Positions 2,861 through 53,000 of a stretch of DNA of 64,000 nucleotides are shown piece after piece; the stretch's first letter is position 1; each line of letters begins with the position of its first letter. The notes below the pieces were generated by a model that saw only the letters and a list, made by a program, of their open reading frames with translations, did not search any database and had not been told where the DNA came from. This DNA comes from Mytilus edulis. Lineage: Eukaryota. The DNA is taken from the NCBI RefSeq assembly GCF_963676685.1, contig NC_092346.1, forward strand, positions 26,040,001 through 26,104,000, read 5' to 3'. Both the position numbers and the translations under genes were made by a program.

Positions 2861-5800
2861 TTATTCCATCGAGCACTCTGAAGGTGGAATGAAAACATTT
2901 GGATCTGTGATTCCAACGTTGATGTCAAAGAATCTGTAAAAAAATAAGTTAAATTAGTTGCTTGCGTAATATGTATAACTATGTAAAATGTCGATATTTT
3001 GAATAAAAAATTGATATTCAATAAACGAAAATTCAGTAAAATTCCTCAAGAAAATGTAATAACACTCCTAACGGTTTCTTTTGTTTCTACTAGATACTGG
3101 AGAACACAATTGGTATATGGGGAAAAGAAGTGGGAAACGGGATTTGGGAAATGAGCTTCCCCATGCACCCCCTGAAAGCTGTTTTCTTTCTAATCTGAGT
3201 GTTAATGGTTAAACGGATGTATTTGACGTCTTTGTATTATCATCTAAATAGATACCAGGACTAAAATTGTGTACGCTAGACGCATGTTTCATCTTAAATA
3301 AAATCACCAGTGACGCTCGAATAAAAAAGTTTAAAACGCCAAATAAAGTACGAACTTGAATATCAAACTAGAATCATATTCGAAACAGTGTGGTCCTGGC
3401 CATTGATTGACAACCGAAATTATCCCATTGACTGGGACAGATTAGATGAACGTTTGTCGGTAACGACTATTGCTCACTTCTCACTTATTATAGAATTTAA
3501 ACTGTGGGGTCACCAAAGGTTCTTAACGCCTTTAATGATAAAATAATTTGAAAAAGTATTCAGCAATAACCTTTATGTTTTGATTTATATTATTGATATA
3601 AATCAACACATCGAATTATTCCGAATTAGTTTTTCGAATTGCTTTATTTAGGTGTTGAGAACCTTTGGTGACCCCACAGATTCAGTGTCTTTAACAAGTA
3701 CACAGTGAGCGCAGTGATTGTTACCGACAAACGTTCATCTAATCTGTCCCAGTCAATGGGATAATTTAGGTTGTCAATCAATGGCCAGGACCACACTGTT
3801 TCGAATATGATTCTATCTGAATAAATATTTTATCAATTTCATAAAAGTTAAAGATCTATCTGAAAATCCAGTGAATATCTTTTTTAAAGCCACTTACGTT
3901 GTTGTGATCAAGCTGGACTCTTTAGAGTAGAAGGCGTATTCAATTGGAACACAGTCTGGTGATGAGACCATTCCGTAGAACTTGTCGTCTCCGTCGGTAA
4001 GAGACCAGTTTTCGACAACAAGAGATTCGCCTGGTACACCAGCGGCACCAATGGTGGCAGATCCGTCAAATTGGGCATTTGGGGGTACTCCATATGGTCT
4101 GAATGGTCTGAGTAGATTGGTTACATTACACTTTCTTGATTTCAAGTTCAATCTGTATTCTTTTCCCTGTATATGAAAAAATATTACTTTAAACAAAATG
4201 TTAATCCTTTGTTTTGAAGATAGATCGAAGACATTGTAAAAAAAAAACGAAAACAATATTTGAGTCTGAAGCTCTTTTCTAGATTTACCTTCATCAGAAA
4301 CACTCAAAGCCAAGAATGTATTTATAAGAAGCGAAACAAGGGAAGAATCTAAAAAAAAAATAACCAAATCTATCTAAGGTCAACTAAGGATCTAACTTAA
4401 AACTCTTCAATAAGTGATATTTTAACTCAAAATAAGGTTCCAATGTTTATAAACACCCAAGCGATTATGTAATAAAATGGTACTTATTGTTTAACTTGTA
4501 GCATTTCCAAATATTACATGCTGTCTCTAGATTTTAATTGAAGTCGATATCTTGTGATCATATTTAGACTGTTTCGAACATCCTTGACGACTTACTTGGC
4601 CAAGCTGGTTGTATTGTGATATATATATATATATACCACGGCCAGCGAAAGCTCTTTTTTTGAGAGCCCCGGTGGTCGTGTGGTCTAGTGGGACGGCTGC
4701 AGTGCAGGCGATTTGGTGTCACGATATCACAGTAGCATGGGTTCGAATCCCGGCGAGGGAAGAACCAAAAATAAATTTCGCAAATTTTTGGTTCTTCTCT
4801 CGCCGGGATTCGAACCCATGCTACTGTGATATCGTGACACCAAATCGCCTGCACTGCAGCCGTCCCGCTAGACCACACGACCACCTTATATATATAAGAA
4901 AAAGTTAAGTAAGTTACTCTCTAAAATCAAGAAATTTCTAAATATTGATCTAAGAAAATTATTTTATAATGGTTATATTCTCCCACTGATAGATTATTGT
5001 TGTATTATTTGGAGTGGTTGTGCTTAAAATGAGCTAGTCAGAATAATAAAGTTGCAGAAAAGGGTTGTAAAACTGATTTTAGATGCTGATCCACTTTCAT
5101 CATCAGCTCCACTGTTCAAACAGCTTGGATAGATGACAGTAGAGAACAGAATCTCATACCACAAATCAGTTTTGATGCATAAATGCCTTAAGAATGAAGC
5201 CCCTGTATATCTCACTGAAAAAATTAAAGAAATGCCTCTTGCAAAAATTTACAAGTTCCAAAAGTCAAAACAGAGCTTTATAAGAAATCTTTTATATATT
5301 CAGGATCTATTTTATGGAATAACTTACCAATATCCCAGAAAAAATCAACCTCAAGTACAAGCTCATTCAAAAAAGATTTAAAAAATTACTTGATGGAACA
5401 TTAAGAAGCTGTGCGTTTTTTATATGCATAACCATTTTGCCACACTTACTCAAACTTATGATATTGTTGATGCCAATACTATACATGTCATATATGAATT
5501 TGTAACTTTTACCTATTTGAAAATTGTATATTTCATAACAATTTTTTATTTCATTATTCATGTATGTGTGTCTGTTTGATATTTTGTAATTGTTTGTTAT
5601 ATTTCATTGTATTTCATGAGGGCCTCAGGGAAGATTAGCTTTATAGCTAACTGTGTNNNNNNNNNNNNNNNNNNNNNNNNNNNNNNNNNNNNNNNNNNNN
5701 NNNNNNNNNNNNNNNNNNNNNNNNNNNNNNNNNNNNNNNNNNNNNNNNNNNNNNNNNNNNNNNNNNNNNNNNNNNNNNNNNNNNNNNNNNNNNNNNNNNN

Positions 5801-7676: not shown

Positions 7677-7720
7677 GGTGGCGATGGATTTGTACAAACT
7701 CGGTCAACCTGGATTCTACC

Positions 7721-12900: not shown

Positions 12901-15900
12901 TATAGGCATATTTTGATTGAAAGAGCAAAAATAATTATATCATATAATTGTGAAACTTTCAAGTCAAATAGACAAACTGATCGGTCTGCTTTAAAACGAA
13001 TTATTAATAAAGAATCCTTTTGTTTGTAAGTTTGATGCAAGATTTTTTGTTTAAGTCTCAGAATATGATAAAGATTCTTTGATAGAAAGTCATTGAATTT
13101 TCATTTAAATATAGCGAAGTTTTTTTAAGATGCTTGGGGAGCAATTTGAATGGAGAGAACATAATTTTATTAATAAAACCTCTTCATTCTATACATTCAT
13201 TGCCAAAGGGAAGCTTGTTTGAATCTAACCAATTTTACACAGTTCTCAAACGAGAGCTTACTTTAGAAGTATATTTATATTCGGTTATAGCTATATTAGC
13301 AGGGTTTGTGGCACCGTTAAAGTCCACAATTCCTCTAGGGTTGATTTTTTTCTTCGGTATAACCTCCATTTACTCAATTGTCTTTGTTATATATATTCTA
13401 GTAGTTACATTGATATAGTTTTCGGGGGCCTTTATAGTTTGCTGTTCGGTGTGAGCCAATGCTCCGTGTTGGAAACCGTACTTTGGCCTATGATGGTTTA
13501 CTTTTACGAATAGTGACTTAGATGGAGAGTTTTCTAATTGCCACTCATACCACATCTTCTTATATTGTTCTGCTCATTATTAGTCAATGATATGTTCTAA
13601 TTACTCAAGCATTTTACTTTACAATGACTACAAAGGTGATAAATTTTAGTATATGCAGCCTCCTGTATAGATAACTCCTGTTTCCTTTGAATCTTAAATA
13701 ACAAATAAGATAAAACAAACATTTACAATATAAAGCAAAGATAGGAAGGAAAATAAAAAAAAAATGTGTGGCGCTAATACGCTTCCGTAGATATAGTACT
13801 GTCTGTTTTTGTAATATTTTCTTTTCTAGGCACACATATGGTAAAACAAAAGTTTTGGAAGACGGATCAGTAGGTGGACTGCAAGTTTACATGATATCTA
13901 CAGACCTAATACGCTTCCGTAGATATAGAACTGTCTGTTTTTGTAATATTTTCTTTTCTAGGCACACATATGGTAAAACAAAAGTTTTGGAAGACGGATC
14001 AGTAGGTGGACTGCAAGTTTACATGATATCTACAGACCTACCTCCAAATGGAACGGTTGTTGTCAAAAAAGGACAAAAGTCTTCTTATTTATTTTTAACT
14101 TCCATAGACACTGAAAAGGGTCCAGCACTGAATGCGTTCAATAAAGGTAATGTTTCTTTATAAGGCACTTTTATATAGTACTAAACATACTGGCATTCTT
14201 ATGCATGTAAGTATTTGTTGAAATGAAAATATTGTATATTTAAGAAAATTAAATTTACACTCGTAACTAATATTCTACGCCCTGATACTTAAAAAAACTC
14301 TAAATTATTACCTTTTATGCACTCCATGTTAATGTATAATGATTTTCCTAAGTTGATTGTTTAACCTTTTAGTTTTAGTTTTGTTGTTTCATTTTTATCA
14401 TCACTTTAAGTGTAGGTTTTCGATCACTTCTCTATTTAAACCTTTTATTGCATTTGCTCTCGTTTTATCTTTTAAATTCCTAGGTGTTTCTGAGTACTTT
14501 AATGATGTACTAGAAGACCAACATATCAAAGCGTGGAGAAACATTTGGGCCAATGGAAGAGTAGACATAATTGGTGATCCAGAGACTGCCAAAGTAACCT
14601 ATGCTGCATACTACTACATTATAAGTTCTATCCCTATTACTAACGATAGCGACTTATCGTTTGTCGGCCTTTCACCAGGAGATCTTGCCCATGGGTCCTA
14701 TTATAAGGCAAGTATTACCATATCAGAATAAGGCAAGTATTTATTAGTTAAAAAAATGAAAATAACATGTTATACATTTCATGCGTCCGAAACACTTTTT
14801 TAGATTTACCTACTTGAGCACCGCTCAAAGCCGAATATTTGAAAGCCAAGGAAGTAGAAGAACCTAAACAGCTGAAGAACTTTATAACCAAAAAGGACCT
14901 TAAACCTTTATATCAATTTTATTCGGGAAATCAGTAAATTGAACTGACTCGAATATTTATTTGTTTTAGTATTCAAAAAATATTGCCCGAATAAAAAGAG
15001 ATTTGCAAAAATTAGCTGGTATTGGTACAACTGATTTTCAAAAACTACAAGAGAAATAAGTTGCATATGTTTTTATCATTTGACTTGAACTCTTACACAT
15101 ACAATGCTGTGCGATAGCGACTAACGCCTTTCAACATTGTTTTGTTTTAAGGATTACCAGGGTCATGTATTCTGGGACCAAGAAACTTGGATGTACCCTC
15201 CTATACAAGTTCTACACTCTGATTTCGGTAAAACATTGCTGAAATCTAGAATACGGACGCTTGATTCGGCTAAACAATTAGCCAAGCAAAAAGGATATAA
15301 AGGTGTTATGTATCCATGGGAAAGTGCATACACAGGTAAGTCAATCACAATATTTCGTATTTAGAGAACACTGTCAGTTTTTTGTCAGCTTATGTGAATA
15401 TTAATGGAGGAACTAAAAAATGGAAACCAATAATGTATACAAGTCTTGAAGAGGAGTTCAAGCAAAAAAAGTCCCGTCAGTTGCCGACTACAATATTGAC
15501 AGATTTGTTTTAATAAAATGCACTTTACTTTTTTTTTAATTATAGATGATCAATTTTATATTCAGATTTTGTCCGTTTAAAAATCATTCTCTTCGATAAA
15601 AAGCACACAATTCAATATAATAATGTACATTTTAATAAAAAAAAAAAAACATTCCTTTATAGGGTTTGAAACGTCACCATCAGACGAAACAGCAGACTAT
15701 GAACATCATATTACAGGAGACATATCTCAGGCTTTCTATTTCTATCTGACAATGACGAATGATACAGATTTTATGACTGCAGGAAGAGGATCTGAAGTCA
15801 TAAACAGTATAGCCGATTTCTGGGAATCACGGGTGACTCTAGACAAAGATACTGGTCTCTACCATATAAACGGTACTATCATAGATTTTTGTTTATATTG

Positions 15901-18900
15901 TTTCAAAAGTAGAACTACTAAGTCAGATGTAATTTTGAATTTTAAATTCATGCAACCAATTTTGGAAGTTTACTGAAAAAAAATTGAAAGATTAAGAGAT
16001 AGTATTCCACTGGACACGTGATTCCCAAATCACGGCAGAATTTGGCAAAACCTTCTTTATGATGGAAATAACGTACCTGTACTTCTCAATGTAAATGGAT
16101 AAACATGGGTATAAAAATTGTCTAAGTAGCAAAAAGAAAAAAGAAGAAAGAACCAAGTTTGTCGATACTATAAACAAACTGCTTGTGTGCATTTTTCATT
16201 TTTTTTAGTTTATAAGAGCAAATTCACATTATTTATTTACATAGAAGTATTGGCGATTCAAAAAAATGACCTAATGTGCTGTTCCGGTTTGTAAGTCAAC
16301 CGAAAATGCCGTCAACAGTGTTGTTGGTTGAAATATTACAAGAAGCGCACGAAATACTGGAAATACAATTTTTTGAGTCTAAAATTTATGGTCAAGAAAG
16401 AAAAAAAAAGTTATGCAGGCTTTTTCTTTTTGTAGGTGTAATGCCACCTGATGAGTATCACTGGCCAGTTAATGATTCTGCGTACACAAACTATGTTGCT
16501 AAAATCAGTTTAGAGGCGCCATACAAAATCCTATCTACACAACCAAAGAATAGCTATCAAAATATTGCTGACAATCTATTCATTCCATTTAACAATACGG
16601 GACAGTGGCATCCAGAATATGACAGTTATACAGAAGGTATACGTTTTGAGTTTATAGCAAAATTGATTAAGATATCATGCCTCGAGTGTAATTTCAAAAT
16701 TGTATTGTATTGTAAACTACCACTGGGTCAATAAATCCTTTCCAGGCTTTGGCTATACTTTGTAGTCTTTTATGGTTTACAGCTGTTCGTCTTCTTTATA
16801 AGCTTTAGATTTTCAAATATTTTGGCCTCCAGTATCATTGAAGAGACATTTTTTGTCGAAATGTGCATCTGGTGAAGAACAATTGGTACCGTTAATGTTA
16901 TTGTAGCAATAATTCATTTTTTGAAGGACCAATATTTCCATTTCTGGTATTATTGATCAAGTGGTTGGTTTTCACGGGATGTTTCTCCTTATCACTATTT
17001 CCAACACTACTTATTTGTCAAATTTGCTTTTACATATTTTTTATGGAACCTAGCGAATAATGCTGCAAATTTATCTTCATCATCCATCTTTTTTGTATGC
17101 CCCACCTACGATAGTAGAGGGGCATTATGTTTTCTGGTTATGTGGGGTATCCGTGTACTATGGACACATTATTGTTTATTGTTGTTTTGTAAATTGTAGA
17201 TGTCATTGTGAAACAAGCTGATGTTATTTTGTTGGGATATCCTTTAATGATGAATTTATCAAAAGAAGTACGAAGGAACGATCTTCTTCAATACGAAAGG
17301 GTAAAAAACGTTATCTTAAATATGTACAATACGACCTATATATATTCGGTACTTATACATCCTCGACTTTCAATATTTGGATTTGAGCGCTCCTATTGAG
17401 GGTAAATTCAGAAAAGGGTTTCGGATACATGAATATAGAACGTGTTGTTTTCATTTCTTTAGTAGTAATTTTACCATTTTCTTTTAAATTGACTTCAAAA
17501 TTAAATTTATTGTCTTTATTTTATACAGGAATGCATCTTGGCGGATTGTTGGCATGTACTACTTGTACATCAATGATACAAAACAAATAAAGTGAAAGTG
17601 AATATACATACAGGTGTTGCGAACTATACAATTAACGAGCCTGTTTTCGCATTGGAGTTGTTTGCTATGAACTTCTTATTAATTAAGAGTTCATGCATAA
17701 ATAATATTCTTGTCAGTGTAACTTTTGAATTTTATGTATACAGTTCTTTAAAACCAACGAATTAACTAGGCGGAGAAAACACTCTGAGTCTCAAACATAC
17801 TAACACTCAACACTAATAAGACAATTACTATCCACACTGATCTGTGTCCACACTTTATAATTTTACAATATGTATTATTTTCAATTTCTAGACTTAAAGT
17901 TTGGTTTTATTAAATAGGACTTTAACATATTTTCATCCTCAGCCAAATTATTTTAAGAAACAGATTATCATATTGTTATAAATAATCATGATAATAGTAC
18001 TATGTGTATTCAGTAGACAAACAATTTTAATCTGTCAAGGTTACACCTGGAGGACCAGCGATGACTTGGGGTATGTTTGCTATCGGATGGCTGGAACTTA
18101 ATCAGTTGGATAAGGCAAATGCCTTATTTGCTAGACAATTCGACAATGTTAGAGAACCATTTTATGTAAGTGTAACGATAGTTGTAATAGAGATGGTATA
18201 AATAGTTCAAGTTCAAGAGAAGATTAAAGTCAGTGGAAGTGGATCTAGTTTTGGAAAAAAAAAGAACCAAGGTCAAAAATTGAATCAATTTTGGAAGAAA
18301 AAATTACCAAGGTCAAAAAAGAGATCAGTTTTGGAAGAAAAAACTACCAAGGTCAAACATGAATTCAAAGATACATGCTTTCAACAAGATAAAGCATGGA
18401 CACACTACTTATCCCTTTCAAAACGCATGAGTTCGTCTACTTTTGTTTTGGGGTTCAAATAAGCAAATTGTTAGTGTCTTTTATATACAATGCACCTTTT
18501 CTTTTCATAGATTTTTTTTTAATTAAATTTTTCCATGTTTTTTTTCTTCCTATAATCTATTTCCGTTTTTTTTTTTTGAGAAACATACTTTTTAATTCCG
18601 TGAAAACATTTATTAACGCATAAAAGAAGGATTAACTTATTTACCGAAATAGCAGAACAGCTGAATTAGGTCATATGGACTGTATATCTCATTATGTTGA
18701 TACTCCTTATTTGGTAATTTGTCTTTGATATCATTTAAAAATTAAATTCATATTTATGACTTTTTTCATAATCTTTTTCCTTGCCTTTTTTAAGACATGG
18801 TCAGAGAATGCACATGGTCCTGGTGCACACAATTTCATCACTGGAATGGGAGGTTACCTACAATCTGTACTCTTTGGATATGGTGGACTCAGGGTATATG

Positions 18901-20507: not shown

Positions 20508-23500
20508 ATGAAAGTCTTCATTGCCATTTGCTGTTTGGTGGCTGTGTTTGGGCAGGAGCCACCGCCATGTGGTAAGTTTTTATTGCATTAATTTTTATAA
20601 TAAGATATTAAATTGATAAATTTTCCAAAACAAAACTGTCCCAAAAAAACTGAAACCTCCATTGTCGGGCACACGCAGGGGCCAGGCCAAATAGAGCTGT
20701 CCTATGGATTCAAGCCTGTCTGAATCAAAACCACATTAAAAATATGACCAATCAACCATCAACGTAAATATCAGTCATTGCTGAGACATTTTGACTTCAT
20801 TATCTACAATACTAAAATATTCGATTGTATATGTATAGTGGCTGTTTTTACTTTACTATTACGTTACGAATCTATTACACCGTCCAACTTTCGAATAACT
20901 AATCGTAAAACACATCGTAATCCTTGTTGTAAAAGTTATTTAGTCACCAGGAAATATGACGAAAAAAAATCACTTTATGACATTGGGAATTTGGTATATG
21001 CAATAATGAATTTAATATCCTGAGCATATGTACTGTGGAGTAGGGAAATAACTGTTAAAGTTTGTCTTCTAAAAAATATAATACAAGCATTGCGACCACC
21101 TTCGCCGACGGAATACAAAACGCATTGCAGTTCCACAAAACATTAGAATTAAAACCAAAGGCAGAGCCATATGAACCACATTCACTTGCAAATTTCAGAA
21201 TTTTCAGCACTTGTTTAAAAGGTTGTGAATTCATGGTTAATAATGTAATATAAAAGTTGGACATAGCTGTATCGTTTTAGTAAATTTTCTATTTCATAGT
21301 ATGTGTAGTGTCAGAAAAATTATTGTTATAGTTATAGTGTCATTTCTCTACAAAACATATTTTTTTATTCGCATTCCAGAATCACCAAAACAATGGGAAG
21401 GCCGACGTGTGGCGGTAAGTAGGCAATGAAATTACTAATCACAATTTGATAGGGCCTTCTCGTACGTCGTACGTCTTTAAAAACAACAAAAAATACAACT
21501 CACCATTAAGTCATATTCTTCTAAAGATAAAAGGTGGTACAGCTAACAGCAACATAATTATCTGATAAAAACCTTCATATAAGCTTTCCATCACTCCTAC
21601 TTTTATAGAACACAACAAAAATCATAGTGTCATAAAAGACAATATAAAACGGATTCGAAAGGTACCAAAAAGGACATGCAAACTCATAAGTCGGAAATAA
21701 ACTGACAACGCCATTGGAAAAACAAAACCGAAAAAGACCAAGAGACAACAGTATACAAAACACAACATAGAAAATCAAAGATTGAGCTTCACGAACCAAA
21801 CAAAAAACTAGGGTTGCTCTATAAAATAAAGCCATTTTAAGGATGCTCTATAAAATAAAGCCATTTTAAGGATGCTCTATAAAATAAAGCCATTTTAAGG
21901 ATGCTCTATAAAATAAAGCCATTTTAAGGATGCTCTATAAAATAAAGCCATTTTAAGGATGCTCTATAAAATGAAGCCATTTTAAGGATGCTCTATAAAA
22001 TAAAGCCATTTTAAGGATGCTCTATAAAATAAAGCCATTTTAAGGATGCTCTATAAAATAAAGCCATTTTAAGGATGCTCTATAAAATAAAGCCATTTTA
22101 AGGATGCTCAAATCTCACATAAATCCTCTAACAACATATAAATCAAGGTAAATGACTGTAACTCCAATGCCAGAGAAACCGGATGCTTTGACAGAACAGC
22201 TTTTCGTATGCAGCCATCACTTGCCATATGGATCCGCAGTCAGTTACAAAAGTCTCATCCAAAAAAATGACACATTCAAAAAAATCAAACATATTAAGCT
22301 TAATGTATATATGATTCAGAAAGTCAGACGAGCGTTTCTTCTACATAAGACTCGTAAGTGTTGCTAAAACCAAAGCAGGCGACAAGCAATTCAAAAAAGA
22401 GGTATCTTCTATTGTTATTAATACTTAATGTTCAATATAACTATAATCCAATTTCTGATTTTAATTGTTGTCATTCAAAATCTAATTCAGTATGACAGGT
22501 CTAAAATGTTTGAGGAAAGATCAAAGGTCAGCTACGATGAAACAAACGAAAGAGTGAGGATTATAGAAGAAGTAGAAATTGGTCAGGACAGAGACTACTA
22601 CGATGTTCTATACCTCCATAACATTGTGAGTAAATTGGCGAAGACAGAGATATAGTTACTATATTCTTTACATCCATAACATGTTAAGTAAATAAGGACA
22701 CAGAGATTACGACGATGGTCTATACCTCCACAAGTAAGAAAATTGATGAAATCGGAGATTACCTAAACGTTCTTCGCCTTTTAAACATTTTAATTAAAAT
22801 GCTAGAGCATGTACTACTACGATGTTTTATACCTTCAAGACATTGTTAGTAAATAATAGGCAACGATAGTAAACTGGTGTTAAAAGTCACCAAGATTATA
22901 CATTGGTACGCCAGACAACCTTCTATTATTCGTTTACATAAGACTCATGAATGCTGCTGGAATCAAAATACTTAAAAGGTTTAAATATTGACTTTTTCAG
23001 TGCTCTTCAACTTCGTTCTTCTAAGAACGCAGTCGAAGAGCACTGAAAACCAAACATTCATAAAAGTTGTGCCAAATATGATAAGTACAGTTTCATAAAT
23101 CTATTCTTATTCAAAAACCTGGATTTTATGTAACATTTCATTAGTTTAGATCGAAATTTTGCAAACATTTTGGAGAATGATTTCCAAGAACTGTTTGAAG
23201 ATAACTAGGGGAAATCAGCAACCGTAGGTATACTCGTTAGTATATATAAGTTCATATATAACATATTTACTATTGTCATAAATTTACAGTTTTAAAAATA
23301 ATGCATTGATATTTTTACAGGGAAAAGAATACAGATTAAATTTCAAAACGCGTCAATGTAATGTAACAGAACTGACAAGACCATTTAGACCTTTTGGAGT
23401 ACCTCCAGGGGCAGAGTTTGAAGGATCTGCAACTCTCGGGGTATCAGGTCTACCCGGAGAGTTTATTACCATAGAAAACTTTTCAGGAGATTTAATGCGT

Positions 23501-24165: not shown

Positions 24166-24592
24166 AGTTATAGAATATTACCACAATAGTTTACAGTGTA
24201 AAAAAAAAACTAAACGTTGCATATCTCATTTTTGAATGTGTGTCATGATAGTTTGCGTTACATTTTATAAATAAAAATAAATGTATACCCATAAGAGTAT
24301 CGTATGTGCGCAAAATACTGTAAGTTATGATTGTGAAAAAAAAACATCAATGAAGCAGATGGTCAGTTTCCTAATAAAGGTTGATTTTGTTTTTATTTGT
24401 TATCACTCATTTCATGTTCTTATTCGATATTTCAATAAGTTTGAGTATTTAACAGTTAAACAGGTTTTATTTACTTCTTATTTATTTCTTTTTCTTGTGT
24501 GTGTATTTTTTCTGAAGATCTGTTGTAGATTATGAATTGAAGTAAAATGGAATCCTAGGAAAAAAGAATAACAAAAATACCGAACTCCGAGG

Positions 24593-24787
24593 CTTACCCT
24601 TCCGGAGCACCTGAGATCACCCCTAGTTTTTGGTGGGGTTCGTGTTGTTTATTCTTTAGTTTTCTATGTTGTGTCATGTGTACTATTGTTTTTCTGTTTG
24701 TCTTTTTTCATTTTTAGCCATGGCGTTGTCAGTTTGTTTTAGATTTATGAGTTTGACTGTCCCTTTGGTATCTTTCGTCCCTCTTTT
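24593..24787 (+). repeat. Dispersed repeat (retroelement 3'-end-like), well-preserved copy
   Basis: CTTACCCTTCCGGAGCACCTGAG...GGTATCTTTCGTCCCTCTTTT; decayed inverted copy at ~21645-21814. Confidence 0.6.
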
Positions 24788-31400: not shown

Positions 31401-32544
31401 TACTTGTCTTGTCTCTCGAGTATTTTCTGATCTTACATCGTCGTCGATTTTTGCTTAACCACTCGGAGCTTGTACTCTATGGCTAACAACGATTTCGGAT
31501 GCCTCCGTCTTCGATACCTCATAAAATCACTTTTTCAGCTGATAGCATATGGACAAATGTCAGAAAGGTATTTTTTATCAGCAGACCTATTCTTAACACA
31601 TGCTATAACATGCTATAACGTGGTCCTCAAAGTCCTTCTCAGTTTCAGTCTCGGTCATCCATTCATTTGATGTGTTTGAACTTTTGATTTTGCCATTTGA
31701 ATACGGAGGATCCGATTTGAATTTTCCTCGGAGTTCAAAATTCTTGTTATTTTACTTTTTGAACAGTAAATTTGGTCGAAATTATCTCGGACTTGGTCGT
31801 CTATTTCGGATACATTGTAATGGTTCACCTTATAAACCTAATAAAAGTTGATCCTGCTGTTAGCCTTTTTGTCGCCGTTAAGCAGATATGTTATATCCGA
31901 GTATTGCTTTAACTTGTAAACTTACGGAATTTCCTAAACTTACGTACAAGAAAAAAACCCAAAAAAAACACTAAGTCATTTTTATTAAATCTTTATTGGA
32001 TTGTGGATGATATGGTTTTGTGCGTGTTTTGGTGATTGGAAGAAGATTACACATTTCAGATAATAGCTCACTATCAAACTGTTTTCCCTAATTGGAATAG
32101 ATAATTGTTGGTACGCCGAATCTGCAATCTAGAGTAAAGGTTTTTCAAACTTTTTGTATGGTAACTCTTGATTTTTGAAAGAATATTTGGTTTACCATTT
32201 ACCATTTTGTTTTACTTTATACCATGAGGTAAAATACCCAAAATACTTAATTTACCGATTTGGTTTACCATTTACCATTTTGTTTAACCATCTACCATTT
32301 AGGAAAGTACTTAAATCACCAAAAACGGAACTGACTACATTGTCATTTGAACTAAACAATTCAGAGGTTTTCCGAATGTAAAAACATAGTTAAGAATAAT
32401 AAAAAGTTTTAGAGTTATCAATGTTTGAACATAGTTATAAAAGAAATATATAATAAGAAGGGTTAATTATCGGTACGATTAAAACAACGTCATCACACAA
32501 TTTTAGGGGAAACAAGTTCCATTTCAAGCAACCGACATTTCGTT

Positions 32545-33160
32545 ACAGTCTTTCTCCAATTGCAGACTGACTTACATCCATATCGAGTATGAAAGGTATA
32601 GAAATATTTGGATGTGAGAGTTTTGGCGCCCCAATGATCTTGGATTTCAATGTCTTAACTGCATGTTGACACTCTCCCGGTATATGCGACCCTTTTCTGA
32701 TAATTTTTGTAGACATTTTGCCATGCCTGCAAATGTTTAACTGTAGTCAAGCCATAACTGTTTTCCATCATCCGTTCAAACGTTAAAATGAACTCATCAT
32801 AGATACCAGGATTAAAATTTTATATTTACGCCAGACGCGCGTTTCGTCTACAAAAGACTCATCAGTGACGCTCGAATCAAAAAATATTTAAAAGGTCAAA
32901 TAGAGTACAGGCAAGCCCAAATGGCATTTTTTTTAATTGGAAGAGGCAACGTAGTGTCGCAAACGCAGTTCTAGTGCTGCAACTCTCTTCTACCTGTACC
33001 TGCCAATAACCTGAACTAAGATCTAAAGTTGAGAACAACTTGTTGCAAGTAAGCTGTTCCAATGAATCGTCTTCGAGGGAATGGATACGCATCTTATACC
33101 GTAAATTTATTGATAGGACGATAATCTACACAGAAACGAGTATATCCGTCCTTTTTTTGA
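32545..33160 (-). mobile_element. Decayed Ty3/Gypsy pol fragment (RT to RNase H), interrupted by a retrozyme piece
   Basis: KKDGYTRFCVDYR, FSTLDLSSGYWQV, TAF..MPFGL, [insert], TFERMME, APKLSHP..PFILDMDVS..AIG; stops and frameshifts. Confidence 0.85.
32828..32871 (-). ncRNA. Type I hammerhead ribozyme (intact) in a retrozyme fragment of a second subfamily (~32784-32908)
   Basis: Minus: GCGUCA CUGAUGA GUCU uuugu AGAC GAAA C gcgc G UC UGGCGU; flank CATCATAGATACCAGG differs from the 355-bp subfamily. Confidence 0.88.
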
Positions 33161-35867: not shown

Positions 35868-36949
35868 TTAGTTGAATACACAAAACCAACTTTCAACTAA
35901 ATTCAGTGCAAGCTTCCTTTAATACTTAACCACGTTCAACATCATCTTCTTCTGATATTTATTTCACAACACTTGTTTGATTCTGGTTTCCACCGTTTTG
36001 TTCTGTTTTGTACAGGTATTTTCCTCCGTTATATATCGGAGCACTCTTACTTGGGATATAGTTTAAATACTTAACAGATATTTACAGCGTGTGATCAGGT
36101 GCTAAAGTCTAAAAGTTTCTGTGTGTGTATGTAACATTTTAATGTTGTGTCATTGTTATCCTCTTATATTTATTGCGTTTCCCTCAGTTTTAGTTTATTA
36201 CCCCGATTTTGTTTTTTTGTCCATGGATTTATGAGTTTTGAACAGCGGTATACTACTGTTGCCTTTATTTATATACAAGTGAGAATTTTGATTTTTAAAA
36301 GGAAGTATTTAAAAGTATGTGCTATTTATAGTTCTACCTATGTTACAATTAAGGATTAAGATAACATTTGAGTTTCTTTTGAATAGACAGAGGAATGTTA
36401 ATACCATAATTTATTTAAAAGTTAAAAAAAAAAGTTAAAAAATTATACGATAAAAATAAAGATAATTAAAACAAAAACAGAAATTGAAAGGGAGTAAATT
36501 AAGTCAGTATGGTATCAGCTTTACAAGAGAAAAAACAAAAACAGAAATATATCAGTAACTTTAACTGGATTATGTGTCGTAAAATTTGGATATATGGTGC
36601 CCCCTGTCAAAGTTTAAGCATATAATTAATGCAAGTAGCTGCTCTAGTCTTAGATGGGGTCGTTAGTTTGACATTCTATGCAGACTGCTTTGTCCTTAGT
36701 TCATGTTATTTATATGCATTGTACTAGTATGTATAGTTCAATACAATATTGATGCTATTATAATGAACTTGTTAATGGTCTTGAAGAAATATTTGGATGT
36801 TTCAGCAGTTTCAATGCAGCCTCTGATGATCACTGTGATTATGGATTTTCAGTTTTGAACTTTCCTCGGAGATCATGATCCGTATTTTTGTAATTTTGTT
36901 TTTTTCGTATGCATTTGGTGACAGGAACTTGGAGAATGTGTTTCTATTT

Positions 36950-44000: not shown

Positions 44001-47000
44001 TTATATAAAAACATATCTAATATATGTTTTAAATTTATTATTATTTAGGAATTAACCTTTATTATATATTCATATTATAGAATATTGTGAGGTTTTTATT
44101 CCCCCTAAATTTAATCTTAATTTAAATCTAAACTCTGGTGTGTATTTTAATTACCTTATTTATCTTGTGTTTAATTTATAGAGAGAAGAAAAGTTTATGT
44201 GAGCTTATTATTCCTTCATATGTAATTTAGCCTGCTTTGTTCGCAAATATTAAATAATTTGGTAAATAGGTGTGTTTGTTGTTTATACATGATATACATG
44301 AAAACTGTCAATATCAAATACTCTTGGATAGACATATCTGACTTTTCCAAATATGCAAATCCTAGAAGGGGTCTGACATATTCTCGTACATGGTATATAC
44401 ATTTATACAAGTACACTGTGGCTTGTACATCCTTGGCAATGTAATTCTCTGTATATTGAATTTGACTGAAGATAGCACCTTCACTTATAAAAGATTCTTA
44501 AACTTACGTTCTAGAAAAAAATATATATAGTATTACAGTGTATGTATAATTAAGAACTGTAAGATTAATGTATTGTTGTAACAGTTATCAAAGGTACCAG
44601 GATTATAATTTAGTACGCCAGACGTGGTCGAGGATCCAAAATTCCAAAAAGTTGTGCCAAATACGGCTAAGGTAATCTATGCCTGGGATAAGAAAATCCT
44701 TAGTGTTTCGAAAAATACAAAGTTTTGAAAACAGGAAATTTAGAAAAATGACCACATTATTGATATTCATGTCAACACCGGAGTGTTGACTACTGGGCTG
44801 GTGATACCCTCAGGGACATATTTGTGTGTAATAAATTGTGTAATAAATTGCAAGTGTTAATGTTTTGCTGTTAAATACAGTATTGATACCAGAGAGTGCT
44901 ATCTTGGTAGTACTTGTTTTAGTGTACTACTTTAAAAAACTTTCGTAAAGTTTTTAGTGTATATGATATTTTCAAGATAAAAGTAAAAGCAGAGCTTTTG
45001 TAGTCTCTTTTAAATTTTTTTCATAGCTTGTATAGACTTTGGGTACTAAGAGCTAACACTTTTTCATTGTTGCAAATCCTTTGTTTACCTCTAGATGATT
45101 TAATAGTGTTGATTGGTTTTAATGTAAATGTAAACTATGCTTAAATCAGTCTAGATTAAAGGGGTTCAAATACTGACAGGCATTAATCTTTTTAAAATCA
45201 CATTTTCAAAAAAGAAGAATCTTCATCCTTGTCAGATCAATAGAGAAACATACCATTTTTCTCTTCAACATCTTCAATAAAACTGCCCAATTGTTCTTCT
45301 CTCTGTTTGGCACGGATAGACACAGCTTTCATATCTTCATTTCGTCCCCTTTCTATACTGTCTCGTGCTAATTTAGCCAGATGCAGCTAAAAATAGATAT
45401 CAGAGTAATTTATTCATGTAATAGAAATAAGGTTTTTGAAAGTATAATTTCTAATTATGCAAGAATAAAATTAACAGTATTGTGGAATAAATTTTTCTGA
45501 CATATACACAACATTTCTTTAGATATAATTATAATTATCTATTTTTCTTTCATTCTTTTAATAAGGCAACCTTTATTTCTATTGATAACTCAAAACACCT
45601 GTATTATATAGATCAAAACATTATTTAAAATGCAGGTTTAACTTCTAGCAAAACCTCAAGTTTGAATGACATACCTTAAGTTTCTGAGATTCCATTTTAG
45701 GTGACGAATATTTTAAAATCCTTTTCTTGTTTTTTTTATAATTTTTAGGTTACTTTTCATCATACATTTGATTTTTTTTCTGAATTATCATGAAATGTAA
45801 CCAGAATTTTCGTGTTACCTGAATTTTCACAGTGCATGCATGCATGGGTCACACATGGATAATCCTTTTTGTTGGGTAAGTTTTCATCATCATTTCTTAT
45901 CAATTTTCCAGATTTAATTTTTTTTCAGATTCAAATACATGTGTAATTCCTTGTTATCTGTGTAATCTATTTACCTCTCTTTCTAATGCCTGTGTATTTG
46001 ATGTGAGATGAATACATTCTTCTTTACTATTTACTAAATCTCTCTCTGCTTTTTTCAATCTTCTCCTTAAATCTTCAATTTCCATTGACATTCTGCTCTT
46101 TTCCTTAAAGAACATATATAAACTCATAAGTCACCAATAATAAAACTAAAAGAGTCAACAACACAATTGCATAATTAGGAAAATTTTGTTAAATCTTCCT
46201 AAAATAACCTCAAATTTAGACTATAAGACTTTTTTTTAAATGAACTCTGTTTGAATTACTAGTTTTATAACAAGTTCAGAAGACACTTGACCACTAGCCT
46301 TTGTTTTATTATAAATGTATTGTCACCTACCTGTTTTGTCTCTACCGCATGTTCTTCAAATGCCTTCTTTGTTTTGCTTAGTTCTAGTACAGCATGACTC
46401 TTTTGGATACTAGCATGAGTTGATTCTTGTCTGAATGTGTCATGGGCCTTTAAATTTAAAGAAATACAAATAGTTCATACTTGTACATCTTTTCTGTGTG
46501 TAAATACTCTTAAAAGAGTCACTGGAGAAATTCCTTTACTTATTCTACTTGAATTGAATTTCACTTAGTCAATGTTATTGCTCTTTTAAGAGACATATAG
46601 GAGACAAAATATCATGTATCATGTGTACTTTTGAGTTTTTGTTCCAGCAATTAAAGATGACATCAATGTTCAAGCTTCTATTGTTTATACTAAAATATCT
46701 TTCCTAAGTAAATCGAGTGTATTCATTTTATGAATTAAAACAAAGCTGAAACATCTTTATTTAAATTGATTCCCAATTTTTATTTAAAATAAGCAATGAA
46801 AATCTTTCATCAAGAAGCCGTTACTTATTATTTCAACTTTTTCTATGCACTGTATATGATTTGTATAGCAACATCTAGGTTTTCTTGATTTGTATAGCAA
46901 CATCGGTTTTCTTGATTTGTGTTCCTGAATCTGTATTTTTAGTATATAAATAACTTACAATAGATGATTCTTTGTCAAATCTTTTAAGTTGTAACTTTGT

Positions 47001-50000
47001 TTCATCTAGTTCTCCAATCAGAGCCACTTTGTCTCGAGACAGCTTCTCTAACTCTGCAGACCATGCTGCATTCTTTTCCAAGGTCTCTCTGAGCTAAAGA
47101 ACAAAAAAATAAACCGAACCAAACATCACTAGTTCCTTTAATGCCATTTTGTTTTTCTTTAACAATTTTTTTAAGAGGCTAAAGATAAAAGCTGTAAAAA
47201 TCGTTTTAGAGACTTGGGTTAGGGAGAAATTATCATTGTTTCAGGTGAATTTCAATGAATTATGCTGTACTTCTGCTTTTAATTTCATTATAGCTTTATT
47301 CAAAATTTTCACGGTAATTTTCAGATTTTAAATAATTTATTTAAATCATTATTTTGCCCATTTCAAATTTAATTCATATGAAAGGATATCAGTTTACATC
47401 TAAAAATTGAAAACACAACTTATTATTACTTTTACATTCTCTTTTCTTAAATACTCTATTTTTTTCTATCCTAGATATTAAAATCAATACCAATAACAAC
47501 TTGTTATTTTCAATAAATTAAAAAAATCATCAATACCTTAGCATTCAGTTCGTCAACAAGAAGTTTATTTTCTCTACGGACAGATTCTCTTTCCTCATGG
47601 AGTCGAGCCTGAGTATCAAGAATGCTTCTGTCAAATCTCTCCTTCATATTGTTTAATTCTTCCGCTAATTGTTCTTTCTGTACTAATGCCTGAATATAAA
47701 ATGAAATAGCATATCAATATTTCTTGTACAGTAAATCATACACACTCGCTATTTTTCTTGCATTTTGTCATTTTCATTGAAGACAACGAAGCTATATATT
47801 ATATAAAATAAAATATCAGGAAACCTGAATAGCTTTATCAACAAACATTATCACATTGGTTGCAGTGAAATACAATGATTTCCTATTAAATAAATTTGGT
47901 GTTTTTATTGTCTTCTGATTGGTTAAAATTATTAGTTTTATTTTCAATGTTGATAATTTTGATGGCGACACACCCACTCTGACGTTGTGTATTCATACGC
48001 CAACATGTGTGTACGTTGTTATTGTTAATATAGATAATACAAAAAGTTGTTTGGGCCTTATTTTTGATAGAAATTTATTCATAATGAATGGCAATAATTT
48101 ATTTTAACTTTATTGAACCATAAAACTAATTTTTGACTCTTCACATTTTACATAATCCGCTTCGCGGATTATTCAATGTGAAGAGTCAAAAATTAGTTTT
48201 ATGGTTCAATAAATTCAATAGTTATCAAAGGTACCAGGATTATAATTTAGTACGCCAGACGCGCGTTTCGTCTACATAAGACTCATCAGTGACGCTCAAA
48301 TCAAAATATTTATAAAACCAAACAAGTACAAAGTTGAAGAGCATTGAGGATCCAAAATTCCAAAAAGTTGTGCCAAATACGGCTTAGGTAATCTATGCCT
48401 GGGACAAGAAAATCCTTAGTTTTTCGAAAAATTCTAAGTTTTGTAAACAGGAAATTTATAAAAATGACCACATTATTGATATTCATGTCAACACCGAAGT
48501 ATTGACTACTGGGCTGGTGATACCCTCGGGGACGAAACGTCCACCAGCAGTGACATCGACCCAGTGGTGTTAATAGTTATCAAAGGTACCAGGATTATAA
48601 TTTAGTACGCCAGACGCGCGTTTCGTCTACATAAGACTCATCAGTAACGCTCAAATCAAAATATTTATAAAACAAATCAAAATAGATAAAAACCATTCAT
48701 TAAGTATAATAAAACAGATGTTTTAATCCTCTGACCTCATTCAACAATACACCGTTTTAGAATCTAATGCATTCTGGGTAATATTTTCAAAAGCGTACAC
48801 CAAAATGTTTCATACCTGTCAACCTGTGACGATGAAAATGCAGGTCATGACCTGCATTGAAGAATCAAATCTCAGGTCATAACGCATACGAACTTTTTCG
48901 AGCTGAATTTCAGTATTTATGGTACATTTTCTTATAATGTATATCAAATATACCAAAACATCAATGCATGTTCACTTTGTTAAGTCATTTTAAATCTTAT
49001 TAAATATTATTTCATTGCACTTTTAAAGATTTTTATAAATTTGTGTAGCTCAGTCTTATGTGCTTTACTTTTTGAGGAAAAATACTGCAATCATCAAACA
49101 CTAGAATTTAATGTAATTCTTAAATGTTTGAGACTATTGACTATGTAGCCTTTAACCATACTATACTTCTTTCAATAATTTCAACAAGGAAATTAGACTA
49201 TGATAAAATATAGTAATACAGTTAAAGGAAGTATAAATGTAAAAAATAATTTTCAACTTTTTAAAAAAAATGTATAAAGGTATAAAAATAATGAAAAGTT
49301 ATTTTTCAATGTGTATTTGAATTTTATATTTTTATGATTTAATCTTTTTCACCCATAAAACGTAAATATAAGGAATAATTTTGAATGGTGACAAATAAGG
49401 GGAAGTAACTCTAGTTCAGTTTGTAAACCAATGCCATTGGCAATGGTGCAATTTATTTACGACTTAAAGCTAAGGTAATTGGTGTTAATTAACAGTGTGT
49501 TTGACACCAAAACTGTCAAGTGAAGCCATGCACTTAATGGGTCACTTAATTTGACAGTTTACATAGCTAGATGAACTTCCTGTTCATGGAAGAATTACGA
49601 ATTTGCTGGTATTTCAAAGGAATATTACTTATGAAATCAATCTCAAGGCTAAGAAATACGGGTGAAATCAGGTCATTTTCGGAATTCCTGGGTTATTTCA
49701 ATGACCTGGCGGGTGTTCCGGGTGATCCCTCAGAATTATGAAAATCTCGGGTCACACCCGCAGAATACGGGTCAGTTGACAGGTATGATGTTGTGATTGG
49801 TTCAAAACGTTTTAAACAATGGAAATCCATCCAATGACGTAACATTATTTTCATTTTAATGTACGAACAATGAGATTACTTTAGTCCTTTAGATTCTGAA
49901 AAGGTGAATTGCTGTTGTCAGGGCCTTGAATCAATATACCGTGGTAAACTGAAAATGCATAGAAGATATAGTTTCATGCATTTTCTACTTTATTCCCATA

Positions 50001-53000
50001 AAAAGAGTTCATGGTCAATGTAATTAAAAAATAACTAATCCAAAAATTCAAACATTGAAAAATACACATATTGACCAAGCAACACAGATAATTAAATCAT
50101 GCACTGTATAAAATAGTGCATTAACGTGTCGTTTAGGTCACTTGTGAAATATTTTTCTACAAATGTATATTTCAATTCTTTGACCAGTTATTTTATAAGT
50201 ATCTACACTAACAGTAATGCAGACATTACCTGTGTCTGTTCAAGTTGAGCTTGTTCTACCAGTTCTATGCCTTTCTTCATTTGTCCATAAGCTTCATCCT
50301 CTCTATGGTTCATTTCATGTACCCGAGTCTTTAAACTGGTAACCTGATCCATTAATTCATCTCTTTCCCTGTTAAATATTAACAATAAACACATGAAATA
50401 ACTTGGTTGTTTCAAAGAAATAATAAAAATGCCATGATTCACTGTAACAAGATTCATTCAATGTTGATACTTAATTTTGAAAACGCCACTATGAAAAGAG
50501 TTTGGTAAGTAAAGTTGTCTGCAAACTGAAATTAATTATGTTATATGATAATAAATATATTACTCTAATTTTTTTGTGTTCATTTATTTTATGTTTTACT
50601 AATTTTTTTTTATCTCTATATTTAACATGGCACCACAAAAATATATTAAAACTTAAAGCATACATAAAAGATTTAATCTGTTTGCCTTATTTAAACAAAA
50701 TATGCTTGTATAATATCTATCTACAGGCCTTCAAAACATTTGATTTGATTTTCTGACTTATCATTGCAAAAAATTTAAAGATTAAAATCAGCAATAAAAA
50801 GTCTTTTCCTATGCTGTTCTTGGGAAGTACATTTTGTGTTTATTGCTATTTCATATGTGTCTTCACCCTATTTTTTTCTAATTGATTGGTTAATTTCAAT
50901 CAAAAACAAATACCAGGGGAATGTCAAACCTATCTTTGTTCTCAATATTTTTTTAAATATATAAGTTCAGAAAGGGAAAAATATTCTGTAATGTTATTTC
51001 ATCTGGAAGAAATATTACAGTATTTGTTTCTGACAGAATAAAGGTTGAAGAAAATTTGTTGGTGTTGGTTGTCTTTTTTGTTAATGTGATTTTTCATATA
51101 TTTTTTTAATAATTTAAATTAAATAAATACCTTGTTAATGAGTTTATAGTATGTACATGGAAAGAGTTGTGACCATCAGCATAGGGCAGGAATCCATTAT
51201 CTCTTGTTGGAATGGAGTCATGAACACGGAGTTGTGATTTATAATCTTCTATCATCTGTTCATATTTTTGTATTTCTGATCTATAAGAGAGAAAAAAAGA
51301 TATCATGGAACAAAAACATTTCAGTTACAAATAAACTCATCATAGATACCAGGACTAAATTTAGTATATACGCCAGATGCACGTTTCGTCTACAAAAGAC
51401 TCATCAGTGACGCTTGAATCCAAAAAAGTTAAAAAGGCCACATAAAGTACGAAGTTGAAGAGCATTGAGGACCAAAATTCCTAAAAGTTTTGCCAAATAC
51501 AGCTAAGGTCATCTTAGAGCCTGTAATTTAGTGGTTGTCGTTTGTTTATTGTGTTTCATATTTGTTTTTCGTTAATTTTTTTATATAAATAAGGCCGTTA
51601 GTTTTCTCGTACTCATAATCCATTGCTGTTTAGACTAGATAGCTTTTTTCATATTTATGATTGGTTAAAATTTAACATGTATAAGGGGAGATAATGAAAT
51701 ATATTTTAAAGAAACCTACCTTGAATGTTCTAACTGTGCTTCCAATCTGTTACATTTAGCTGCATGTAGAGAATTCAATCTTTCCTACAACATAAAAACC
51801 TTTTGAATAGAGTAACACATGAACAGAAATATTTCAATCATTTTCTTTCTCTTTGGTTAATGGAACTTCAATAAAAGGTTCCCTTATTTGTAAAATTATG
51901 GATCTTTGCTAATACAGGTTAAAAGGAACACAAATATACATTGGATATCAGTATTTTTTTTTTTTTTTAACTAAAATCATTTTCATAATTTTAGTTTTTT
52001 AACTGTGATTGAATGCATAAAAGAAGACCCACAAATTTGAGTATCTCCCCTTATGCATGTTGAACTGAAATTATGTTCCTTTTAGCACCAGTTGAGTTCT
52101 CAAACTTTGTAATGTTTCTTCAATATCTGTGCTGCAGTTTTGTTGGCATTAAGCATAAGAGAGTATACCCACACATTAAAGTTATCAGTTTGATTATCTC
52201 CCCTTAACAGTTAGGACTTAATTTATTTAATGTACATGTGGTGTTCTATAAATGTGTCCGAAATAACACTTTCCAATTTTCTTATGTCTGAATTATTAAT
52301 TTGTATATCTGCAAAGAATGATAAACAACAGAAAGTACACAACTGATAGATTTTTTTTATCATATCTTACCATCTCAACTTGTATGTTTTTTAATTCTCT
52401 CTTCTGAAAGATTCTTCCTCCAGTTTCTTCCATGAATAAATCATCCAACTATAAAATTAAAAGAAAGTTAATATTCAAATTAGTTAAAACACAGATTTTT
52501 TTTTTACTGTTTTTTGGTTTATTTTTTGTGCAATTGAATTCTGTCTCAAGAGTCAAGTGTACCTATACCTCTATCTCTTTTATTCATACTTTCAAACTCA
52601 GCCCTGAATTTGACCTCATTTTTGGAATAATTGTTTTGTTTCAGTGGGTTTGATATTTTTTACTTGTTATTTGTTAATATATTCATTGATTTCAAGTTTT
52701 TACTTTAAACCAATCTAGGTCAAGGGTAAGCTTTAAAAGTATAAACAATTTCTTTAAAAAAGTACAAAATTTATTTAGAATACAAATTCATTTGAAACAG
52801 AAAAGAAGAGCTGCAATGTACTAATTTATGACATGTAGTCAAAGGAACATGATGCTGTTTATCATCTCAAAGTCTACAGAGATGCCTCCATCAAGAACAA
52901 TAAACTCATACCTTTCTTCAAATTCAAAATATTGCCTTGAATCAACTGAGTAGATTCTTTGCTAGAGGTAGATAACATAACATCTGATCATTGAAAACTG

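Follow-up and report, generated by a model that had tools for sequence, protein, structure and literature searches.

The 64-kb window (the whole stretch of mussel DNA that was analysed) contains dispersed copies, most of them broken, of the retrozyme, a self-cutting RNA repeat already known from mussels. Profile HMMs built from real tandem units detected retrozyme sequence at all 12 sites listed in the original prediction, in 13 segments (Table 1), and gave no matches in reversed controls of the window and of 400 kb. The hammerhead ribozyme was covered at 11 of the 12 sites, and an exact CUGANGA...GAAA core remained at five (4262, 32828, 48252, 48607, and 51370). A strict three-stem descriptor was passed by three sites (32865, 48289, and 48644), which Rfam Hammerhead_1 also recovered at 30.2-33 bits, slightly below its gathering score of 34. 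The expectation of about a dozen hammerhead copies, from intact to decayed, was therefore borne out, except that the family 1 unit at 44614, listed as a hammerhead copy, has lost model positions 228-309, including the core, by deletion rather than decay. The partial tandem at 48217..48679 carries two intact hammerheads spaced 355 nt apart, and its insertion end lies 41 nt beyond the last cleavage site.

Table 1. Retrozyme and Naiad features in the 64-kb window (window coordinates)
Feature	Positions	Strand
Family 1b fragment; hammerhead decayed (core CUGGUGA, stem II lost)	3248..3364	-
Family 2 fragment; exact core 4297-4276, stems weakened, no 3' tail	4259..4385	-
Family 2 copy; 5'-truncated, 3'-complete, decayed core	14751..14903	-
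Family 3 copy; 5'-truncated, 3'-complete, single core change C3 to U	16734..16902	+
Family 2 copy; 5'-truncated, 3'-complete, decayed core	17345..17458	+
Family 1a fragment, short, decayed	22313..22374	-
Family 1a copy, decayed, small insertions	22882..23166	-
Naiad N3 (candidate helper) 3'-end fragment, young, 99.5% identical, same breakpoint	24592..24785	+
Naiad N1 3'-end fragment, 79%	31658..31759	+
Family 1b copy; 5'-truncated, 3'-complete, hammerhead intact at 32828-32871	32786..32908	-
Naiad N2 3'-end fragment, 90%	36117..36267	+
Family 1a copy, hammerhead core deleted; model 38-227 joined to 310-353	44581..44817	-
Family 1a partial tandem: 108-nt 5' piece plus one full 355-nt unit	48217..48679	-
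Type I hammerhead, downstream copy; predicted cut between 48258 and 48257	48252..48295	-
UUCG-capped hairpin, then ATG at position matching Naiad start codon	48484..48506	-
Hairpin domain (stems P1-P4) common to Naiad 5' end; 87% identity over 71 nt to Naiad N3	48508..48565	-
Type I hammerhead, upstream copy; predicted cut between 48613 and 48612	48607..48650	-
Family 1b copy; 5'-truncated, 3'-complete, exact core, mismatch in stem III	51329..51516	-

A density of a dozen copies per 64 kb is ordinary for the mussel genome. Hammerhead-covering matches numbered 11 in the window compared to 29 in a 400-kb, evenly spaced genome sample (≈2.4-fold higher in the window). Tandems cause the hammerhead matches to clump. 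The search for an adjacent Penelope-type reverse transcriptase (RT) or GIY-YIG reading frame, using eight proteins of Penelope-like elements (PLEs) as queries, found none in the window; the nearest intact Naiad PLE lies ≈20 kb before it.

Genome-wide, families 1, 2, and 3 consist of homologous ≈350-bp units. At least three families had been predicted, and three were indeed found, each with exact cores; they are not independent, because whole units align end to end, with bodies 57-79% alike between families. We conclude that they form one superfamily of Mytilus non-LTR retrozymes, a class already described (PMC7229834). Each unit (335-366 bp) holds, in order, a hairpin, a vestigial ATG, an AT-rich body, a single hammerhead, and a tail of 40-50 nt that finishes with a U-rich run, and units are repeated head to tail, as in other non-LTR retrozymes, whose repeats measure 150-450 bp. 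Reading frames from the conserved ATG are mostly 2-22 codons long and not conserved; a small protein was rejected, since the frame reaches 58 codons in one of eight family 1a units and only 4-24 in the others. The earlier view that the copies are ribozyme-bearing, non-autonomous retroelements is supported. The tandem arrays that had been anticipated were found, some with at least 9 exact units. Exact ribozyme copies number 10,429, 4,297, and, for family 2, 1,042, giving at least 15,768 exact cores in the three families, in addition to a fourth family unrelated in body. Because every family contains young arrays, in which adjacent units are 96-100% identical, as well as thousands of exact cores, the proposed radiation is not solely an old one, and, judged from sequence, all three families are still amplifying.

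These properties match those of the non-LTR retrozymes of Mytilus galloprovincialis, which have type I hammerheads in non-coding tandem repeats of 350-390 bp and thousands of copies (Cervera and de la Pena, 2020, PMC7229834; preprint 10.1101/721605). The available text of that work gives ≈5,000 hammerheads in two families, fewer than found here. It also describes self-cleavage of one Mytilus clone at ≈0.1 per min and accumulation of retrozyme RNA as abundant circles, which predominate in mussel tissue, and it proposes PLEs as helpers, naming no particular one.

The hammerheads of families 1 and 3 are type I, with the CUGANGA, GAAA, and UH core and stems I-III; Rfam places family 1 matches slightly below its gathering score and misses family 3. 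Checking the genome-wide consensus, as had been proposed, revealed intact cores in the majority of families 2 and 3. Moreover, the compensatory stem changes around a kept core that had been noted in the window hold between families, with changes on both sides in 7 of 12 pairs and 56 of 58 cells paired among five sequences. An 8-nt palindromic stem III is retained in all families, and the RNAs may accordingly be cleaved as dimers.

Family 2 departs from this pattern. Its stem II had been described as a 3-bp AGG/UCU helix, which the majority sequence contradicts: an A·A mismatch occupies positions 10.1/11.1, followed by two G-C pairs. A10.1 is present in 31 and A11.1 in all 34 of the copies found from a decayed query; genome-wide, 1,042 exact copies have A·A, compared to 5 that lack A11.1, one of which has A-U. 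The core letters CUGANGA, GAAA, and UH are retained, both in the majority of the 34 copies and in the 1,042 exact copies. We interpret family 2 as a type I hammerhead variant with a fixed A·A mismatch, for which slow cleavage is predicted. Two known cases are similar: axolotl HHR_Amex2 has a mismatch at the base of a 2-bp stem II (PMC7229834), and the U10.1-U11.1 hammerheads are mismatched at the same position (Perreault et al., 2011, PMC3088659); according to the available text, however, both have U·U instead of A·A. The family 2 ribozyme is missed by Rfam, and family 2 implies that descriptor and Rfam searches undercount natural hammerheads. Family 2 is transcribed: reads were present in all of four raw RNA runs chosen by species label, with a sense bias in the three runs of one study. 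Some reads join the end of a unit to its start, which circles and tandem read-through would produce alike, and RNA read ends did not pile up at the family 2 cleavage site in the four runs.

A covarying hairpin of ≈60 nt is present in every retrozyme unit and also forms the 5' end of Naiads, PLEs that lack hammerheads. Three mussel families, N1-N3, which are 56-64% identical to one another in pairwise comparison, are provisionally assigned to the Naiads by a GIY-YIG domain N-terminal to the RT in one ORF with a DKA motif and RT motifs, and by a match, read by eye, of N1 to the published Naiad_Mgal protein. The elements are 3.4-4.5 kb long, in line with the 3.4-4.4 kb typical of Naiads, and form partial tandems (pLTRs); in all nine full-length copies the hairpin stands at the 5' end directly before the ATG, and a hammerhead core is absent. 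A second RT-based search for further Naiad families returned only N1 among 150 scored of 38,814 candidates. Retrozyme hairpins are identical to that of N3 at 50-52 of 60 positions and to that of N2 at 42-44 of 60. In stems P1 and P2, 96 of 96 cells are paired and 8 of 12 pairs change on both sides, compared to at most 52% pairing in slid controls, and the whole fold is paired in 105 of 105 cells; these counts come from 5-8 related sequences, from which the structure was also drawn. The motif opens 11 published Naiad consensus sequences from bivalves and hemichordates (11 of 12 matches), where compensatory changes were read by eye. No Rfam family matches the hairpin. Three other identities were rejected: an antisense hammerhead, which the reverse strand of the family 1a hairpin resembles in degenerate form, loses its letters in families 2 and 3 and in Naiads while plus-strand pairing is kept; a pseudoknot between the invariant inner segment and a 5-nt internal loop is broken in N1, N3, and oyster Naiads; and an HDV-like hairpin does not fit in helix order.

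Insertions of retrozymes and of Naiads share one stopping point at the U-run, ≈2-7 nt before the hairpin. Among copies not running into a next unit, 3' ends fell within -12 to +2 nt of the hairpin in 27/32 (family 1a), 40/45 (1b), 49/53 (family 2), and 30/34 (family 3) retrozymes, in 16/17 N1, 12/12 N2, and 26/28 N3 copies, and in 23/26 copies from an unselected sample plus the window; in these counts some loci derive from queries that included the 3' tail, cross-family anchor matches were allowed, and a few duplicated loci remain. Hundreds of N3 junctions in RNA reads lie at the same four positions. The retrozymes thus share with Naiads both a cis element and an insertion end, as would non-autonomous partners. 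The Penelope-like helper postulated earlier is supported by this hairpin and breakpoint and, from sequence comparison, is probably a member of the Naiad clade. A near unit-length copy in the N2 3' UTR raised the idea that retrozymes are simple deletion products of N2; it is 62-65% identical to family 1 compared to 49-55% to families 2 or 3, and because it is nearer family 1 we read it as a captured dead copy. N3 RNA reads cover both strands and are 3'-graded; across the opening 560 nt of the ORF region their depth is only 0-20, and a full-length helper mRNA was therefore not observed.

The shared hairpin and insertion end imply that the Naiad RT likely starts on RNA just 5' of the hairpin. A PLE RT studied in vitro starts internally and needs RNA 3' of its start (PMC11167929). 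We put at roughly 0.7 the probability that the window copies are 5'-truncated ≈350-bp retrozymes copied by the Naiad RT, which likely docks on the hairpin, probably with circular RNA as template. Tandem transcripts would be cut to monomers, probably as double hammerheads formed through the palindromic stem III, and then ligated, and closure of the circle would bring the hairpin into place immediately 3' of the U-run. The RT/GIY-YIG protein of the Naiad would nick AT-rich DNA; cDNA would start 2-7 nt 5' of the hairpin, cross the ligated site, and run on, and onward copying around the circle would yield 3'-anchored fragments, partial tandems, and arrays. Linear cleaved monomers were rejected as templates, since among the first 100 family 1a tails listed at most one starts at the cleavage site and 95 extend through 10 nt upstream of it.

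The Naiad RT could instead copy uncleaved tandem read-through transcripts, leaving the hammerhead a passenger in mobility and the family 2 ribozyme possibly dead. Naiads, like the 3' fragments they leave, spread although they have no hammerhead, hammerhead mutations had no effect on insertion in vitro for the one PLE studied (PMC11167929), the read-through of the cleavage site in the family 1a tails suits uncleaved RNA as well as circles, no RNA reads end at the family 2 cut site, and 10.1-11.1 is among the most conserved hammerhead pairs. We nevertheless regard this alternative as unlikely: between families with bodies only ≈58% alike, the core letters do not vary and stems I-III covary, which argues for selection on the ribozyme; circles predominate in mussel tissue, and hammerheads that have a 2-bp stem II or are mismatched at 10.1/11.1 do occur in nature.

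Alternatively, the hairpin may only mark Naiad descent, as a promoter or translation leader, the present movers being hammerhead-bearing canonical PLEs or LINEs. Its position directly before the Naiad ATG would suit a leader; the genome contains young canonical PLE families that are intact and have hammerhead-like motifs of their own, and Xenopus retrozymes resemble pLTRs of annotated PLEs (Li, Clavereau, and Pollet, 10.64898/2026.07.22.740005). However, five families of PLEs with a C-terminal endonuclease, checked as alternative helpers, lack the hairpin; canonical PLEs share only interspersed fragments with retrozyme units; and (TA)n closes all of their terminal copies (17 of 17), compared to 1 of 76 retrozyme flanks. 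Retrozyme insertions have no poly(A) and no excess of target-site duplications (6/76 compared to 4.7% in shuffled controls). A leader role would leave the shared breakpoint unexplained, and in the non-coding units the hairpin is more conserved than the body. We consider such movers decidedly improbable.

It is more improbable still that the hairpin acts as DNA, as an endonuclease target or internal polymerase III box, with the fixed end set by where DNA is cut or transcription begins. Within the hairpin domain the inner letters do not vary, and part of P2 resembles a B-box; but P1 and P2 tolerate G-U wobbles on one strand, and in N2 the letters that resemble the box show compensatory changes, as for an RNA helix. 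In favour of a DNA role, the Penelope endonuclease of D. virilis required that its tail sequence be present in DNA (PMC11167929).

Returning to RT docking on RNA, we hold a broader reading to be slightly better than an even bet: the Naiad RT would recognise a conserved bulged hairpin 3' of its start, which is the element's own 5' end from bivalves to hemichordates, and not a 3' tail as LINEs do; mussel retrozymes would be minimal parasites in which hammerhead cleavage and circularisation place the hairpin behind the U-run; and one thriving family would do so with an A·A-mismatched hammerhead working as a dimer.

Naiads show the 5' truncation and partial tandems seen in the retrozymes, with the same hairpin and breakpoint, and Naiad_Mgal occurs in this genome; unlike the retrozymes, they code for EN-RT and have no canonical hammerhead (Craig et al., 2021, PMC8557442). 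The available sections of that description mention neither a 5' RNA structure nor a hammerhead-bearing non-autonomous partner, and the hairpin and fixed 3' end go beyond the Mytilus retrozymes as presented in the available text of PMC7229834. Xenopus retrozymes likewise have sequence in common with PLE termini; in the available text of that study molluscs, mussels included, are absent, and Naiad appears only in coral, unlinked to retrozymes (10.64898/2026.07.22.740005). In the literature covered, which excluded Repbase/Dfam annotations and most subscription journals, no paper was found that connects Naiads with retrozymes or describes the hairpin, and the shared hairpin and fixed 3' end are apparently new to print.

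Published accounts, in their available text, leave open which enzyme copies animal retrozymes and what it recognises. On sequence grounds, the hairpin shared at the point where copies end likely identifies the enzyme that spreads mussel retrozymes. Together with the breakpoint it names a clade for the helper, a candidate signal of 60 nt, and a point where copying would start, so that an in vitro test is feasible with one protein and a 350-nt RNA. If true, Naiads, which are dominant in bivalve genomes, would thereby gain their first cis signal.

Profile HMMs built from real tandem units identified 13 retrozyme segments at the 12 window sites where the original prediction had placed hammerheads, and reversed control sequences gave no matches to the same profiles; all 12 sites thus carry retrozyme sequence. 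The hammerhead region was covered at 11 of the 12, the exact core was retained at 5, and 3 passed the strict descriptor and matched Rfam, but the hammerhead proposed near 44614 has lost its core through an internal deletion. Forty evenly spaced 10-kb stretches of the 1.37-Gb genome contained 29 hammerhead-covering matches, which extrapolates to roughly 100,000 genome-wide. Therefore, such matches are about 2.4 times as dense in the window (G+C 32%) as in an average stretch, which is unexceptional. The 5′ ends of copies were dispersed.

Tandem arrays, proposed originally as a check, were found, and monomers cut from them measured 354-362 nt (family 1a), 366 nt (1b), 349-353 nt (2) and 333-358 nt (3). 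These monomers were alignable over their whole length, with unit bodies 57-79% alike between families. Exact ribozyme patterns (35-39 nt) occurred 10,429, 4,297 and 1,042 times genome-wide for families 1, 3 and 2, respectively, reversed control patterns did not occur at all, and adjacent units in arrays were 96-100% identical. We conclude that the families form a single superfamily that is still active. The predicted separate families hold in their distinct stems, but the whole units are homologous end to end; likewise, an old radiation is only part of the history, given the near-identical array neighbours and thousands of exact ribozymes. The repeat class is already known: Cervera and de la Pena described ~5,000 hammerheads in two families of 350-390 bp in M. 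galloprovincialis, and these non-LTR retrozymes are of the same class as the window units (PMC7229834).

In a comparison of five sequences, family 4 included, the hammerhead core is unchanged and 7 of 12 stem pairs are altered on both sides, bearing out the compensatory changes predicted. In all of the families, stem III and its loop together make up an 8-nt palindrome, and covariation extends to the pair that would close a 2-nt loop; pairing between two copies would explain this more easily than a hairpin. Dimeric cleavage is known for axolotl retrozymes (PMC7229834).

The CUGANGA/GAAA/UH core, on which the prediction had staked family 2, is complete in the majority sequence of 34 copies retrieved with a decayed window query and hence unselected for an intact core. 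The stem II read originally as AGG/UCU was not recovered; instead, the 10.1/11.1 pair closing stem II is A·A (A at 10.1 in 31/34 copies and at 11.1 in 34/34), followed by two G-C pairs. Genome-wide, five otherwise exact copies lack A11.1, one having A-U. Rfam gave no match on family-2 and family-3 arrays. Natural hammerheads with a U·U mismatch or a 2-bp stem II are on record (PMC7229834; PMC3088659). Family 2 is transcribed: its specific positions were covered in all four RNA runs, chosen by species label, and reads connect the unit end to its start. The presumed sense direction exceeded the other by ~1.4-5 fold in three runs of one study, and the fourth run showed no strand bias. Read ends did not accumulate at the predicted cut site in the four runs, and cleavage and circles of family 2 are predicted.

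A GIY-YIG search of the genome returned many young Penelope-like elements (PLEs). Five families with a C-terminal endonuclease had nothing in common with the retrozyme units except interspersed fragments and lacked the hairpin described below; (TA)n ends occurred in 17/17 terminal copies of four C-terminal-endonuclease families and at 1/76 retrozyme flanks. These differences speak against the five as helpers. One match with an N-terminal endonuclease held the most conserved retrozyme segment in its leader, and a search with this element yielded three young Naiad families, N1-N3, whose proteins are 56-64% identical and carry a DKA motif. By eye, one element of this genome matches the published Naiad_Mgal protein, which points to a Mytilus mussel as the source. 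In 9/9 full-length N1-N3 copies the segment forms the 5′ end, immediately before the ATG, and none of the nine contains a hammerhead core. An ATG also persists at the corresponding place in the retrozyme units, and its frame is not conserved. Thus, the predicted Penelope-like mobilisation is favoured for Naiads, which have the same hairpin and insertion end, but not for the five C-terminal-endonuclease families.

Other repeats and motifs were noted (see table). The 3′ UTRs of Naiads resemble patchworks assembled from captured 3′ ends, and Rfam gave no twister match on loci L251 and L256.

Additional repeats and motifs in the window and at other genomic loci (L-numbers)
Feature	Location	Observation
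Fourth hammerhead repeat	L168:5300-10000 (G000:C12:20.005-20.010 Mb); L099, L199, L209, L211	Core family-3-like, palindromic stem III different; unit 518-546 bp, body unrelated; Naiad hairpin pattern not matched; 12 matches in 400-kb sample, 0 in window
Dead family-1-like retrozyme copy in N2 3′ UTR	N2 unit ~3740-4030 (L256, L257, L258)	280 nt, 3/3 N2 copies; 62-65% identical; hammerhead ruined
Conserved 18-nt motif	Window 8761-8778 (+)	Once in window; 6/6 N1/N2 copies (~120 nt and ~340 nt before 3′ ends, respectively), 0/3 N3 copies
Hammerhead-like motifs 3′ of PLE ORFs	L207, L204, L212, L206	Four young C-terminal-endonuclease families; off consensus (one U·U at 10.1/11.1, three with altered core letters)
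tRNA-like element	Window 4671-4885; L205	In window, perfect 102-nt inverted repeat (98%), B-box-like motif; in L205, after hammerhead-like motif twice, 440 nt apart
Exact 15-17 nt word upstream of family-2 hammerhead	e.g. L090:1455-1470	Recurs in N1 and N2 3′ UTRs; weakly supported (score reached by 2 and 7 of 200 shuffles)
MITE-like inverted repeats	Window 3369-3815, 48104-48218, 29337-29466, 55798-55978	
29-bp tandem array	Window 21815-22109	10 copies
Seven-copy dispersed repeat	Window 8241, 8987, 13510, 30974, 39323, 55734, 62074	Families D4, D7, D8, D17; common 3′ end; possibly 3′ ends of another Naiad

The common segment folds as a bulged hairpin. In P1 and P2, 96/96 cells are paired and 8 of 12 pairs are altered on both sides, and the whole fold has 105/105 cells paired, counts drawn from few, related sequences. 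RNAalifold yields the same fold, as do circular monomers (P1 probabilities 0.76-1.0), and Rfam holds no family for it. The motif also opens 11 published Naiad consensus sequences from bivalves and hemichordates (Craig et al., supplement, PMC8557442), which, read by eye, add further compensatory changes.

Retrozymes and Naiads also have a common insertion end. Among copies without continuation into a next unit, 3′ ends fell within -12 to +2 nt of P1 in 27/32 (1a), 40/45 (1b), 49/53 (family 2), 30/34 (family 3), 16/17 (N1), 12/12 (N2) and 26/28 (N3) cases, and in 23/26 of an unselected sample plus the window, concentrated at -7 to -2 nt; some loci were retrieved by tail-containing queries, and a few duplicates were left. 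Independently of these loci, RNA reads place N3 junctions, hundreds of them distinct, at four neighbouring positions at this end; no full-length N3 mRNA was seen in the reads. Sequences before the breakpoint differ among all seven families except for a U-rich run, implying that the common part lies 3′ of the cDNA start. This is consistent with in vitro work on one PLE, in which synthesis begins within the RNA and requires sequence 3′ of the start (PMC11167929).

The breakpoint lies 40-50 nt beyond the hammerhead cut, and among the 100 family-1a tails listed first, at most one starts at the cut. Cut linear monomers were accordingly rejected as templates, leaving circles or uncleaved multimers. 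For a M. galloprovincialis retrozyme, cleavage at ~0.1 per min and abundant circles were reported (PMC7229834); since the hammerhead was dispensable in an anole PLE assay (PMC11167929), the templates may instead be uncleaved tandem transcripts.

PLEs had been suggested as helpers, none being named in the accessible part of PMC7229834, and a general retrozyme-PLE connection was argued for Xenopus in a preprint (bioRxiv 10.64898/2026.07.22.740005). Our literature search found no paper on a Naiad-retrozyme link or on the hairpin; supplements of PMC7229834 and of the preprints may bear on which families have been described. The unit anatomy, common hairpin, common end, cut-site read-through and transcription are seen here, and cleavage and circles are published for a Mytilus retrozyme (PMC7229834). 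With circles as templates, Naiad protein would bind the hairpin, prime on nicked AT-rich DNA and copy around the circle. We infer that Naiad protein probably moves the retrozymes of this genome through the hairpin that both kinds of element carry.
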